Part shown: in pieces, positions 28 to 24,965 of the stretch
Position numbering within the stretch: position 1 is the first letter of the stretch
How the letters are laid out: each line of letters begins with the position of its first letter
Assembly (NCBI RefSeq): GCF_004010195.1
Contig: NC_057751.1
Span: 14,238,812 to 14,275,552, forward strand
Direction: 5' to 3'
Origin: Chiloscyllium plagiosum
Lineage: Eukaryota
Length of the DNA stretch: 36,741 nucleotides
Notes under the pieces: generated by a model
What the model saw: the letters and a program-made list of their open reading frames with translations, nothing else
Told to the model about the DNA's origin: nothing
Database searches by the model: none
Program-made: the position numbers and the translations under genes

Positions 28-232
28 GGGCGGCATGGTGGCACAGTGGTTAGCACTGCTGCTTCACAGCGCCAGAGACCCGGGTTCAATTCCCGACTCA
101 GGCGACTGACTGTGTGGAGTTTGCATGTTCTCCCCGTGTCTGCGTGGGTTTCCTCCGGGTGCTCCGGTTTCCTCCCAAAGTGTGGACTTGTTGGGCCGAA
201 GGGCCTGTTTCCACACTGTAAGTAATCTAATC
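28..232 (+). mobile_element. HE1-type tRNA-derived SINE with internal deletion
   Basis: tRNA-like head with A box (tggcacagtgg) and B box (ggttcaattcc), CR1-like 3' tail and aatct end repeats. The central part seen in other copies is missing (junction cctcccaaag|tgtggac). Confidence 0.9.
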
Positions 233-6221: not shown

Positions 6222-7475
6222 GTTAGAATATCACTTTCTGTACTTGGTGTTCACTGAATGGTCATCTGGTTCAGGTGGGGTTACTGGGTAAGCTGTGCAT
6301 TTGTACGGTGGCGAGCGGAGATCATTGCAATTTCCTTTTATGTTGCTGAATTCAAGTTTTCTTTACATTGGTGCGTCCCACATTTGGAAACTTTGAAAAT
6401 AGTCAAGTTTAAATGACTTAGCTTGCAAGTTTGTTAATTGGATCCTGCAAAGCATCTGGTTTCTGAATTTATTTGTCAGGTTAATATGAAGAACACCATG
6501 AATTGTGGGGCATGTGAAGTATGGGCACGTGACTGTATTTGTGTGAAATAAGGCATATGGAAAGTGGCTAACTGCAATCACTGTACCCCTCAGGAAGGGT
6601 GCACAATAACAACCCAACTCGTTTGTGAACAAGGAGCAAGACATCTGCAAGGGTTACATTTGTCCTCATGAGTCCAGTCCTGATGTCAGTAAGTGATCAA
6701 TAGAAATGCAGGAAATCGGTGGGCATGAGAAGATCCCCTGGTCCATTCTGGGTAGTATAATGCTATCAAATGATCATCTGCCGTCCAGGCCAGAATGGAG
6801 TTCTGACAATAGGTCCCCACGACCATTGCTTTTCGTATTCAAGTGACACTGGGTCATTTCTCCACTCTGTGTATTTTCTAGTTTCCTGCCATCAGTTTCA
6901 TTACCGGTTGGAATGGTGAGAGGATATTATGAGCGAGGCAGGAAGCAGCATAAGTTTGTGTATACCCGGGGGTTGGAGTCATGAGTTAACGAGGAATCAG
7001 AAGGAAGTGTTCTTGCCGACACCATGCATTGTAATTCGGATTGTGAGGATCAGTCATACTGGTGCAATATTTCTTTGATATCCTCAGGAGAGGTGATAGT
7101 CTGTGATCTTCTAAACTAATTTCTTTAGTTCTGAATCTTATGGTGACCTCAAACTTCCCCATCTTTCTGCAGTGCAACAGATTCTACGCTTGGTTATGGA
7201 AGTACCCCAATTAGTGGACCTCTGGTACTCTGTGCTTGGTTGACATGACACGTCTACCTCCAAACTTAGGCAACAGTTGACTGATGATTGATAGCAAATT
7301 AACCTCCCTTTATCTCACTGCGGATGCTCTGACTTGAATTCTCAGCTCCTTCCTGTCCATACCGACCTATTCGTTGTGACTATCAGGTTTTGCACGTCCT
7401 AATAAATAGCTGTGCAGTTGAGTTCTCCTTGTATTCGTGTTCAACCTTGTTCGTTTAGTTCATTTATTTTTGCCA

Positions 7476-8886
7476 GGAGAAAGTGAGGACTGCCGATGCT
7501 GGAGATCAGAGTGGAAAAGTGTGGCACTGGAAAAGCACAGCAGGTCAGGCAGCATCCGAGGAGCAGGAAATACCACATTTCGGGCATAAGCCCGTCATCG
7601 GTAATGTGGCTGGGGAGGGGTCAGGTGACAGATGGGGAGGAGAAGGGGGCTGAGAGATAAATAGGAGGATGGGGTGGGGCTTGGGGAAGGGAGCTGGGAA
7701 GGCGATAGGAGATGCAGTTGGTGATAGTAACAGTCGGAGTGGAGGGTGGAGTGGATAGCTGGGAAGGAAGATGGACAGATAGGACAGTTCAAGAGGGTGG
7801 TACCAAGTTGGAGGGTTGGATCTGGGGTGAGGAGACATTAGGAGCTGGTAAAGTCGATGTTGATGCCGTGTGGTTGAAGGGTCCCAAAGCCGGAGATGAG
7901 GCGTTCTTCCTTTAGTTGTCAGGTGGCTTGGATTTAGTGGCGGAGGAGGCCCAGCACTTGAATATCCTTGGTGGTGTGGGAGGGGGAGTTGGAGTGGTCA
8001 GCCACAGGGCAGTGAGTTCTTTGGTACGTGTCTCCCAGAGATGTTCCCTGAAACACCCCACAGGTTGGTGTCCTGTCTCCACAATGTCGAGAAGACCATA
8101 TCGAGAGCAATGGACCCAGTCAATGAGTTGTTCGGATGTGCAGGAAAATCTCTGCAGGATATGGAAGGATACTTTGGGGCCTTGAACGGAGCTGAGACAG
8201 AGGTGTGGGCACAGATTTTACACATCTTGTGGCAGCAAGGGAAGGTGCTGGGTATGGAGAGTGGGTTTGTAGGGCTGTAGACCTAATGTGCACCTTCTCT
8301 TGCCGCTGCAAGAGGTGTAAAACCTGCCCTCCCCCCACCCCCAACATTAGGGAGGCAGGACAACGCCAACTCGGGAATGTTTCAGGGAACATCTTTGGGA
8401 CACGCACCAAACAACCCCATTGCCTGATGGCCAACCACTTGAACTCCTCCTCCCAGTCTGCTAAGGACATGCAGGTCCTGGGCCGCCTCGACTGCCAAAT
8501 CAACTGTCACTCAACGACTGGAGGAAGAACACTTCATCTTCGGCCTTGGAACCCTTCAACCACACAGCGTTAACATTGACTTAAGAGTTTCCTAATGTCC
8601 CCTCCCCCCACCTCATCCCAGATCTAACCCTCTGACTCGGCACTACCCTCTTGAACTGTGCTACCAATCCATCTTCTTTCCCACCTATCCACTCCACCCT
8701 TCCCTCCCACCCATCACTAATATCCCCTACCTGCATCTACCTATCACCTTCCCCCAACCTCCACCTACCCTCCTAGTTATCTCTCAGCCCCCTTCTCCCT
8801 CCCACATTCCTGAAGAAGGGCTTATCCCTGAAATGTTGACTGTCCTGTTTGGCCTGCTGCACTTTTCCATCGCCACAGCTTTCGAC
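7476..8886. mobile_element. Penelope-like element remnant: two inverted 3' halves (GIY-YIG endonuclease and 3' terminus), minus arm ~7476-8275, plus arm ~8285-8886
   Basis: Minus arm translates FSCTSEQLIDWVHCSRYGLLDIVETGHQPVGCFREH (decayed GIY-YIG). Plus arm gives CRCKRCKTCP...NHLNSSSQSAKDMQVLG...EEEHFIFGLGTLQPHSVNID. Decayed hammerhead motifs at 7573-7602 (-) and 8807-8838 (+). A 13/16 direct repeat at 7460-7475 and 8887-8902 is a probable TSD. Confidence 0.85.
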
Positions 8887-22268: not shown

Positions 22269-22593
22269 ATTAGATTAGATTAGATTCCCTACAATGTGGA
22301 AACAGGCCCTTTGGCCCAACAAGTCCACACCGACCCTCCGAAGAGCAGCCCACCCAGACCCATTCCCCTACATTTACCCCTTCACCTAACACAACGGGCA
22401 ATTTAGCATGGCCAATTCACCGAACCTGTACATCTTTGGACTGTGGGAGGAAATCGGAGCACCCGGAGGAAACCCACGCAGACACGGGGAGAACGTGCAA
22501 ACTCCACACAGACAGTTGCCTGAGGCAGGAATTGAACCCGGGTCTCTGGCGCTGTGAGGCAGCAGTGCTAACCACTGAGCCACCTACCGTCCC
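22269..22593 (-). mobile_element. Full-length HE1-type SINE
   Basis: Reverse complement has tRNA head, central domain, CR1-like tail and (aatct)3. Confidence 0.95.
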
Positions 22594-22662
22594 AAAGTGC
22601 TAACATGGAGAATAACGTGATACTCTTGAGGGTAACTCTGAAATTGACTGAATATTCCAACT

Positions 22663-22696
22663 GTCCTGAAGAAGGGCTCATGCCCGAAACGTCGAT
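22663..22696 (+). ncRNA. Intact minimal type-I hammerhead ribozyme core (PLE type)
   Basis: GTC-CTGAAGA-A-GGGC-TCAT-GCCC-GAAA-CG-TC-GAT. All core residues are present, stem III is the palindrome ACGU, and cleavage is predicted after C22693. Confidence 0.75.
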
Positions 22697-22725
22697 TCTC
22701 CTGCTCCTTGGATGCTGCCTGACCT
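22663..22725 (+). mobile_element. 63-nt PLE-terminus insertion with perfect 10-bp TSD (tattccaact)
   Basis: TSD at 22653-22662 and 22726-22735. The insert is homologous to the termini of the PLE at 7476-8886 (ctgctcc..ggatgctgcctgacct). Confidence 0.9.
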
Positions 22726-23236
22726 TATTCCAACTCCCCAGAAGGAAAAGATCATTCTTCCAAATGGGGTCTCATGTCCTGGGTGGGGGGGGGGGGGGGA
22801 AGGCAACATGTGTGGCCAGGTAGTATGTCTCCAAAAAATTCGTTTACGCTCATTTGCAGAAATTGCACAAGTTATTTTGAAGTTTGCTCTGAATGAGGAA
22901 TGTAACAGGTGAGTTTGGAATATTGAGTGGAACTTTAATGAAAGCATTGCATACCTTGCATGTTTTCTGGCTGAGGAAAGAGTGACAGGGCAATTAGATT
23001 GATAACACAGGTAGAATGATAATTCCCCAAATTTGCTGGAATCCTATAATCGATCCTAAAAATGAAACTTGAGTATGATGGCATTCTTGAATGGAAAATA
23101 TTTCTCTGCATTATACATTTTAAAGCATCACATTGTTCAGGTTGAGGAAATCATTTGCTTTTCCAGCAACACCTGGAGGATCCGACAAGATTGGTCGTGT
23201 ATTACTATTCATTATGTGCATGTTCTTCTTTGACAG

Positions 23237-23352
23237 AAAGTTGGAGTCACTGGCCCACCAGATCCACAAGTCCGTTCACCTTCTGTAATAGAATTTGGAA
23301 AATATGAGATCCAGACCTGGTATTCCTCTCCATATCCCCAGGAATATACAAG
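23237..23352 (+). CDS. KAT6A: KAT6A coding exon (116 nt, phase 0 to 2), start of MYST domain: [38 protein letters not shown](R)
   Basis: Acceptor ttcttctttgacag, donor AG|gtactg. Translation matches the MYST N-terminus ([19 protein letters not shown]). The [13 protein letters not shown] leader is characteristic of KAT6A rather than KAT6B. Confidence 0.96.
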
Positions 23353-23484
23353 GTACTGTAACCTCAAGTTGGATTTGCTTGTATAACTTTTCCTATTTGA
23401 AGTTGAACTTGGGAAATTACATGGACAAGAAGTGATCAAGAAAAATCTGCAATTATGCTGTGCTTTTCAGTCCTGTTGAACATT

Positions 23485-23839: not shown

Positions 23840-24965
23840 TCACAGCATGGAAACAGATCCTTCAGTCCAACTAATCCACGCTGACCATGTTCCTGAACTA
23901 AACTTGTCTCAGTTACCTGCGTTTGGTCCATATTCCTTCAAATTCTTCCTGTTTATGGAATTATCCAAATGTCTTTTTAAGGTTGTAACTGTCCCTGCAT
24001 CCACCACTTCCTCCAGCAGTTCAATCCACAGATGAACCACCCTCTGTATAGAAAGCATTGCCTTTCATGTCCTTTTTAAAGCTTTCTACTCTCGCACTAA
24101 AAAGATGATCCCTCATTTTGAACTCCCCCACTCTTGGGGGGGGAAGACCTTTGCTATTCACTTTATTTGTGCCCCTCATGATTTTATAAACCTTTAATAC
24201 AGTCACCCATCCATCTCCTGTACTCTCTTGAAAAAAATCCCAGCTTATCCAGCCTATTATGCGAACGCAAAAGCCTTCCATACCCGGCAATATCCTAGTA
24301 AGTCTTTTCTGAACCCTCTCCAATTCAATAGTTTCCTTCCTGTAGCACTGTGACCAGAATTGCATTCAGTACTCGAAAAGAGGCCTCACCAATGTCCTGG
24401 ACAAGGTCAACACGACCTCCCAACTCGTATACCCAAAGGTCTGAGCACTGAAGGCAAAGTTGCTAAACTCCTTCTCAATCACCCTGTGTCTCCCTGAGAA
24501 GCAAATATCAAAGGATAATGTCCCTGGTCCCTGTGTCTCTATTCTACAATACTGCCTAAGGCCCTACTATTTTTATGTGAGTCCCACCTTGTTTGTTTTA
24601 CCGAGATGTAATACCTCACATTTATTCAAATTAAACTCCATCTCCCACTTCTCAGCCTGTTGACCCAATTGATCAAGATGTCTTTGTAATCTTAGTTAAA
24701 AATCACACAACACCAGCTGATAGTCGGACAGGTTTAATCGGAAGCACTAGCTTTTGGAGCACCGCTCCTTCATCAGGTGGTTGTGAGCGGCGCTCCGAAA
24801 GCTAGTGCTTCCAGTTAAACCTGTCGGACTATCAGCTGGTGTTGTGTGATTTTTAACTTTATGCACCCCAGTCCAACACCGGCATCTCCAAATCATTTGT
24901 AATCTTCACTGTCCACTCTGCCACCAATCTTGATATCCTCTGCAAACTTAGTAACCACGCTTCCA
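23840..24965 (-). mobile_element. CR1 3' fragment, interrupted at 24694-24895
   Basis: ORF 24021..24365 (MQFWSQCYRKETIELERVQKRLTRILPG), with SKFAEDIK near 24930-24950. Confidence 0.88.
24694..24895. mobile_element. Fold-back PLE-terminus-derived element B with 11-bp TSD tttgtaatctt; hammerhead motif on minus strand 24745-24779
   Basis: Arms ~24694-24766 and ~24785-24858 are near-perfect reverse complements. TSD at 24683-24693 and 24896-24906. Minus strand reads CAC-CTGATGA-A-GGAGC-GGT-GCTCC-AAAA-GC-TA-GTG. Confidence 0.9.

Follow-up and report, generated by a model that had tools for sequence, protein, structure and literature searches.

The locus analysed here raises the question of whether a ribozyme-like insert in an intron of a chromatin-regulator gene acts on the transcript that carries it, or is one more copy of a mobile element. 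The window (the whole 36,741-nt stretch of shark DNA that was analysed) contains a 63-nt insert between two copies of a short direct repeat, and the 5' half of this insert resembles a hammerhead ribozyme. An earlier note on the same DNA had described it as a minimal, recently mobilised ribozyme cassette that might cut KAT6A pre-mRNA when paired with a second copy. The features of the window that bear on this proposal are collected in Table 1.

Table 1. Positions of the host exon, the insert and its parts, and other copies of the same repeat family in the window
Feature	Position	Strand	Basis
Older long-form copy with tail, antisense to the gene	7475..7606	-	85% identity over 132 nt
Older degenerate sense copy, pLTR-like sequence upstream	8805..8869	+	Family alignment, sequence
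Left target-site duplication copy, tattccaact	22653..22662	+	Sequence; duplication search at insert edges; contains ATT
63-nt insert, a doubly truncated (5' and 3') copy of the hammerhead/RT-entry module of a Penelope-like family	22663..22725	+	Family alignment
Minimal type-I hammerhead motif	22666..22693	+	Sequence, family conservation, motif definition of PMC4209133
Right target-site duplication copy, tattccaact	22726..22735	+	Sequence; duplication search at insert edges
Exon, start of the MYST domain (KAT6A-type)	23240..23353	+	Open frame, zf-MYST, 2ozu

Host gene and surroundings of the insert

The open frame of the exon downstream of the insert matches zf-MYST in Pfam (E 1.6e-10), and its best solved structure is that of MYST3/KAT6A (2ozu, E 4.8e-19), a match that does not distinguish KAT6A from KAT6B because no KAT6B chain is present among the 32 hits. 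The motif therefore lies in sense orientation within an intron, approximately 500 nt upstream of a MYST exon, as had been stated.

Several other sequences surround the insert. The segment at approximately 22500-22590, about 70 nt upstream of the insert, resembles a fragment of a tRNA-derived SINE; ARAGORN identified no tRNA-like gene in 22300-22700, and Rfam at gathering score returned nothing there. A run of approximately 16 G residues lies at 22785-22800, 50 nt downstream of the right copy of the duplication. In the next intron, the minus strand of 24021-24365 contains a 114-aa frame (..ERVQKRLTRILPGMEG..YKIMRG..) that looks like the tail of a retrotransposon reverse transcriptase (RT) ORF. 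When words of the window were sampled against sequencing runs, 20 of the 24 runs listed matched part of it, with a second organism label accounting for a fraction of 0.43 of the words; these shares are uninformative on an empty site, polymorphism, transcription or RNA ends.

Anatomy of the insert and its hammerhead motif

The perfect 10-bp target-site duplication (TSD) described earlier was read again on both sides of the insert, and the 63 nt between its two copies agree base for base with the first description. Counted from the C of the CUGA box, the insert spans -3 to +61. Perfect direct repeats of 10 nt at spacings of 20-200 nt number 18 in the window, compared to a mean of 4.85 in 20 shuffles. 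The tattccaact pair abuts exactly both ends of the segment with homology to a repeat family, and TSDs of at least 8 bp at such edges were found in 0.15% of 2,694 mismatched control pairs. The arrangement of TSD and insert is thus not due to chance, since the repeats sit exactly at both edges of homology to a family of 91,134 copies.

Every conserved base of the hammerhead core, namely C3 U4 G5 A6 N7 G8 A9, G12 A13 A14, A15.1, U16.1 and H17, is present in the 5' half of the insert, in agreement with the earlier note. The CUGAAGA box (C3-A9) at 22666-22672 is preceded by gtc and followed by an extra unpaired A at 22673, between A9 and stem II. Stem II consists of 4 bp (GGGC/GCCC, 22674-77/22682-85) closed by the G10.1-C11.1 pair and capped by the loop UCAU, the whole element spanning 22674-22685. 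It is followed by GAAA (22686-22689), a C-G dinucleotide, U16.1 (22692), C17 (22693) and G1.1 (22694), with the predicted cleavage site at 22693/22694. Two further parts of the original description were reproduced: helix III is replaced by the palindrome ACGU (22689-22692), with no helix III hairpin, and helix I of the window copy comprises 3 bp (GUC with GAU, including one G.U pair). In the family sequence, in which the upstream bases read ..attc, helix I is 2 bp long and is then interrupted by a mismatch. Minimal hammerheads (min-HHRs) have helices I of 4-5 bp, and of 2 bp in D. virilis (PMC4209133). The assignment to the minimal type-I hammerheads of the kind carried by Penelope-like elements (PLEs) is likewise upheld, as an extra base after A9 and a palindromic 15.2-16.2 are typical of PLE min-HHRs (PMC4209133).

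Rfam at gathering score gave 0 matches in the whole window, and no hammerhead family (Hammerhead_1, Hammerhead_3, Hammerhead_II, HH9 or HH10) was reported for 22600-22800 at E values up to 10. This silence is expected and uninformative, since the models presuppose a helix III hairpin and the motif is without one. A chance origin of the motif can be rejected, given its copy number and its conservation at the level of the family.

The insert belongs to an abundant repeat family

A genome-wide search for a 30-nt core with up to 2 mismatches identified 91,134 places (45,736 forward and 45,398 reverse) in 3.56 Gb, whereas the reversed core, used as a control in the same pattern search, was found at 0 places. 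The insert is therefore not a free-standing ribozyme cassette but one of at least 91,134 cores, and represents the pLTR/hammerhead end of a PLE truncated at the 5' side and, unusually, also at the 3' side. Loci around 53 cores were examined (30 + 3 + 20), one overlapping locus being dropped, and the ends of 59 exact-core copies were mapped (58 from 52 loci, plus the window copy).

The 3' ends of these copies fall mainly into two clusters approximately 33 nt apart, with 23/59 at +90..98 and 19/59 at +122..131. In the window copy, the 3' end lies at +61, and early ends were found in five of the other 58 copies (+38, +72, +81, +84 and +84), none of them at +61. From a reading of the alignment listing, five more apparent early ends are internal deletions or clusters of mismatches after which homology resumes. 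On the 5' side, 42/59 copies match the upstream pLTR for no more than 10 nt from CUGA, with a peak of 14 copies at 5 nt, and the window copy does so for 3 nt; the remaining copies extend for 16 to 334 nt upstream of CUGA.

Many copies are abutted by head-to-head inverted, 5'-truncated partners, the arms of which begin at many points within the core, and for 22 of 55 secondary copies the distance to a selected copy is no more than 13 nt. A TSD of at least 8 bp was found for 4 of the 55 testable copies, the window copy included, and 51/55 had no clear one; 4 copies were dropped from this test owing to N or short flanks, and inverted partners mask many true edges. The other three TSDs measure 14 bp (L052), 11 bp (L022) and 10 bp (L009). 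A clean TSD is thus the exception in this family, and a 3' end at +61 is atypical.

The boundaries of the family, at approximately -5, +28 (the ribozyme cut), +61 (the window copy), +93/94 and +126/127, follow one another in steps of approximately 33 nt. The pile-up of 5' ends lies just upstream of CUGA and off the ribozyme cut site; sampling of intact cores may exaggerate it. Beyond the long 3' end, sequence is shared between L017 (from approximately position 1640 on) and 3 of 123 high-scoring pairs (HSPs; to reference position 230), and this may be either a continuation of the full-length element or another repeat.

No head-to-tail tandem repeats, each with a canonical type-I hammerhead, as are typical of non-LTR retrozymes, were seen in the examined loci, which show singles and inverted pairs, and the window has a single intact copy. 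Locus L032 contains a same-strand pair 150 nt apart with an inverted piece in between. Three same-strand copies 2.2-2.7 kb apart on one contig (contig 1, L031) were considered as a possible tandem full-length PLE, and this candidate was rejected, as no frame exceeds 163 aa and orientations are mixed. The two older copies in the window (Table 1) lie 14-15 kb upstream of the insert, each with pLTR-like sequence on its 5' side, and their cores are broken largely at CpGs: in the antisense copy the CUGA box and C15.2/C17 are changed, and the sense copy is disrupted in stem II and around GAAA.

A probable Penelope-like parent element

In two loci (L002 and L011), family sequence runs for approximately 200-480 nt upstream of the core into a GIY-YIG-like frame, which reads ..LYIGETGR..EH..HPVAQHFN..LIF.LGT. 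Pfam assigned no family to the 65-95 aa frame of L011, either as it stands or with the stop read as X. The same frame shares 84% identity with the C-terminal end of P0001, a protein without known function (from bamboo shark according to its source), which has a sub-threshold GIY-YIG match over the same stretch (E 0.0046). Longer relatives of P0001 (n=94) carry RVT_1, and several also carry GIY-YIG. One of the relatives, P0011, combines RVT_1 at 291-479 (29.4 bits, cutoff 29.6) with GIY-YIG at 708-751 (25 bits, cutoff 22.6), and RT followed by GIY-YIG is the canonical order of EN+ PLEs (PMC4209133, PMC11167929). An RT domain directly adjoining this family is not visible in the fetched loci because parts of them read N.

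Two non-coding signatures point the same way. The two alternative 3' ends approximately 33 nt apart correspond to the PLE 'tail' of 30-40 bp, which Frangieh et al. 2024 (PMC11167929) attribute to a pair of internal RT start sites; a tail is also described in the available part of PMC8557442. An inverted 5'-truncated copy lies beside the 5' end at many loci, and such partners are typical of PLEs according to the available part of Craig et al. 2021 (PMC8557442). As Pfam is silent on the L011 frame itself, the assignment to PLEs is carried by the chain of homologues together with these signatures. An ATG lies within loop II in the sequence common to the family copies, and the frame it opens reaches a stop after 25 codons, shortly ahead of the short 3' end.

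Conservation of the hammerhead across the family

If source elements depended on a working hammerhead, the core would be expected to vary less than its flanks in copies genome-wide, a comparison that the earlier note had named beforehand. A 230-nt family sequence from L017 served as reference, against which BLAST gave 123 HSPs in the loci. Exact-core matches, which had been picked for that very core, the window's own matches, and HSPs ending before position 45 or starting after 60 were left out, and 55 copies were kept; these unselected copies are copies that happen to lie in loci fetched by coordinates. The expected excess of conservation was observed, with non-CpG mismatches at 7/365 in the core and 205/3022 in the flank (Table 2).

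Table 2. Non-CpG mismatches by class of position in unselected family copies
Class	All 55 copies	26 copies at least 300 nt from a selected copy
Invariant core	7/365 (1.9%)	4/170
Stem II	14/280 (5.0%)	6/128
Flank, +29..+90	205/3022 (6.8%)	158/1363
Free positions (N7, extra A, loop II)	41/221 (18.6%)	28/105

The invariant core thus varies 3-5 times less than the flanks, and N7 and loop II vary freely. For the 26 more independent copies, Fisher tests gave p 5e-5 for core versus flank and p 1.3e-9 for core versus free positions; these p-values overstate the case, since the counts are cells rather than independent events and subfamily differences (A or U at N7; UCAU, UUAU or UUUU in loop II) are inherited. 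CpG positions differ in 15-21% of cases in every class among all 55 copies, and no compensatory change or covariation was found in stem II among them. Such a pattern would be expected if the hammerhead worked in the source elements, and the low variation of the core suggests that these elements kept one. A fixed core beside free N7 and loop II positions likewise supports the view that the motif truly functioned as a ribozyme there.

Origin of the window copy

In all likelihood, the insert arose by retrotransposition as a very short, dead-on-arrival copy of the end module of a PLE, a module that includes the minimal hammerhead together with the initial portion of the RT start region. By analogy with the anole PLE, a GIY-YIG endonuclease would have made staggered nicks at an ATT-containing site, giving rise to the 10-bp duplication; ATT is the nick site favoured by the anole PLE endonuclease (PMC11167929). 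Reverse transcription may then have started inside the PLE RNA, approximately 30 nt upstream of the usual start site, as the same analogy suggests, and would have halted several bases upstream of the CUGA box, in the zone in which most copies of the family likewise have their 5' ends. In the source elements, the hammerhead has been retained by selection, presumably for processing of PLE RNA aided by PLE protein. The recent mobilisation put forward earlier agrees with the state of the copy, which appears young relative to the family on account of its 100% identity to the typical family copy L017 (62/62 nt in a BLAST-type alignment) and its three CpGs, all intact. At -3, the insert has g and the family t.

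The hammerhead and RT-entry unit might instead constitute a separate, non-autonomous element that resembles a SINE or is akin to non-LTR retrozymes and depends on PLE proteins for mobilisation in trans, rather than being produced by random 5' truncation of full-length PLE cDNA. The concentration of 5' ends within 10 nt upstream of CUGA (42/59, with the peak at 5 nt) would fit such a unit, as would the similarly short minimal in vitro template of the anole PLE (PMC11167929) and the derivation of animal non-LTR retrozymes from PLE pLTRs drawn in the available part of a 2026 preprint (10.64898/2026.07.22.740005). However, intact-core sampling enriches copies that barely include the core, the partner arms start at many points inside it, and neither tandem arrays nor a promoter came to light, the tandem-looking L031 lacking a long ORF and being mixed in orientation. 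This reading is possible but unlikely. Its narrower form, in which a unit of approximately 95 or 128 nt with edges at -5, +28, +61, +94 and +127 is a discrete trans-mobilised 'mini-PLE' with approximately 10^5 copies in the shark genome, is improbable. If it were true, the spacing of approximately 33 nt would suggest that PLE priming or resolution involves a ruler-like step, and expressed PLE protein could chaperone cleavage of sense-intronic copies, the KAT6A one included.

Another alternative to insertion by a PLE endonuclease is the capture of family RNA or cDNA as filler during repair of a chromosome break. Both ends of the insert are non-canonical, the 3' end being 30 nt short and the -3 base differing from the family, and the scarcity of clear TSDs in the family (absent from 51/55 copies) could be read in the same way. 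In contrast, the perfect 10-bp duplication abuts the insert exactly, which staggered nicks give and filler capture does not; moreover, the target contains the ATT preferred in the anole system (PMC11167929), and early 3' ends in 5/58 other copies fit variable internal initiation. Break-repair capture is therefore the weaker alternative, and quite improbable. Insertion of a truncated PLE copy through endonuclease nicking and reverse transcription remains the preferred account, and it leaves the question of what the copy does in its intron.

Consequences for the host transcript

The earlier note had proposed that KAT6A pre-mRNA could be cleaved at the window copy in a conditional manner dependent on repeat RNA, namely when its ACGU pairs with that of another copy, in cis or in trans. 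In favour of this, no base of the core is altered, the motif has the sense orientation within the intron, and at least 91,134 potential partner sequences exist in the genome. Moreover, dimeric action is established for short-helix-III hammerheads of amphibian repeats (PMC7229834, available part). Nevertheless, the only other copies in the window (Table 1) have broken cores, and no intact partner copy is present within its 36.7 kb.

Folding predictions do not favour the paired form either. The monomeric 63-nt RNA has a minimum free energy (MFE) of -11.5 kcal/mol and folds no better than its shuffles (z = +0.6). Cleavage by pairing with a second copy would involve a helix III of 4 intermolecular bp and a helix I of 3 bp, and the double-hammerhead fold is strongly disfavoured, at -18.9 kcal/mol compared to -31.5 for the best dimer (12.6 above it) and 2 x -11.5 for two monomers. 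In the dimer ensemble, the ACGU helix is predicted to be very unstable, with a helix III pair probability of approximately 6e-4; stem II is present in the MFE structure and has a pair probability of 0.85. These are nearest-neighbour values, which ignore tertiary contacts and proteins.

Published min-HHRs are almost inactive when PLE protein is absent, and cleave only weakly as dimers. A Schistosoma min-HHR does not cleave as a single motif and has low activity as a dimer or trimer (PMC4209133), and the anole PLE hammerhead depends on PLE protein, with no RNA-seq reads beginning or ending at its cut site (PMC11167929). Given these observations, and since nothing distinguishes the window copy from tens of thousands of others, it is highly improbable that this chromatin-regulator gene contains a conditional cut site here. 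The window copy is one ordinary member of a repeat family, and very probably has no role as a regulatory cut site. As a solitary intronic copy it is most probably catalytically silent, judging from its predicted fold, because helix III is missing, helix I is only 3 bp and no intact partner lies nearby, and it would be neutral for the host gene. More generally, an intronic hammerhead-like motif in a chromatin regulator can be an ordinary PLE product, and is not to be taken as gene regulation without RNA-end evidence.

Comparison with known hammerhead systems

The amniote intronic hammerheads HH9 and HH10, reportedly described by De la Pena together with Garcia-Robles in 2010, are said to be single-copy, deeply conserved, complete three-helix ribozymes that are included in Rfam. 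They share with the shark motif a sense position in the intron of a protein-coding gene, whereas the shark motif is a repeat copy without helix III and without an Rfam match.

Non-LTR retrozymes and the hammerheads of amphibian satellites also share features with the shark motif. In the available parts of their descriptions (PMC7229834; Li et al. 2026 preprint), they are likewise type-I, have a weak helix III and reach very high numbers in the genomes of some vertebrates. According to the same partial sources, the amphibian and retrozyme hammerheads work as dimers (PMC7229834), and a link to PLE pLTRs is drawn by the preprint (10.64898/2026.07.22.740005). However, they form tandem repeats of approximately 150-450 bp with canonical loop-loop contacts and give circular RNAs (PMC7229834, available part), whereas the shark copies are dispersed singles or inverted pairs.

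A likeness is also found with PAc, the Poseidon-type PLE of Anolis carolinensis (PMC11167929). In both elements, the hammerhead lies shortly upstream of two RT starts 30-40 nt apart. An AT-rich or ATT target is also shared, as is the extension of both DNA strands, which would give inverted partners. The PAc ORF starts in stem II, while the ATG frame in loop II of the shark sequence stops after 25 codons. The window copy, moreover, starts approximately 30 nt before the site usual in its family, and PAc is known biochemically, the shark element from its sequence alone. The family offers a clean natural record of 3'-end choice by a PLE, with two main ends 33 nt apart and rare earlier starts, of which the window copy is one.

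The closest counterparts are the PLE min-HHRs themselves (PMC4209133). Shared features include the CUGANGA and GAAA boxes, the G10.1-C11.1 pair, one unpaired base separating A9 from 10.1, a palindromic 15.2-16.2 in place of a helix III hairpin, a short helix I and a location in the PLE pLTR. The genomic arrangement is shared as well, as the majority of min-HHRs occur singly, scattered in the genome as remnants of truncated PLEs, while some are paired on opposite strands (Cervera & De la Pena 2014, PMC4209133), and the shark copies are also mostly dispersed singles with some such pairs. Stem II, in contrast, has 6-8 bp in Schistosoma and D. virilis compared to 4 bp in the shark copy, and helix I has 2-3 bp in the shark, the published lengths being 4-5 bp or, in D. 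virilis, 2 bp. Copy numbers also differ, with at least 91,134 near-identical cores in the shark compared to approximately 4,000 in coelacanth and approximately 9,000 in Xenopus (PMC4209133).

A literature search returned no text joining ribozyme, Penelope and cartilaginous, sharks are not mentioned in the main texts of Cervera & De la Pena 2014 (PMC4209133) and 2020 (PMC7229834), and the available part of the 2026 preprint has a single chondrichthyan sampled for retrozymes (10.64898/2026.07.22.740005). The family described here is thus a PLE family of a cartilaginous fish that carries a minimal hammerhead in approximately 10^5 near-identical copies. The insert in the MYST gene is a shark instance of the already known PLE minimal hammerhead, and differs from most of its relatives in being unusually short and TSD-flanked.
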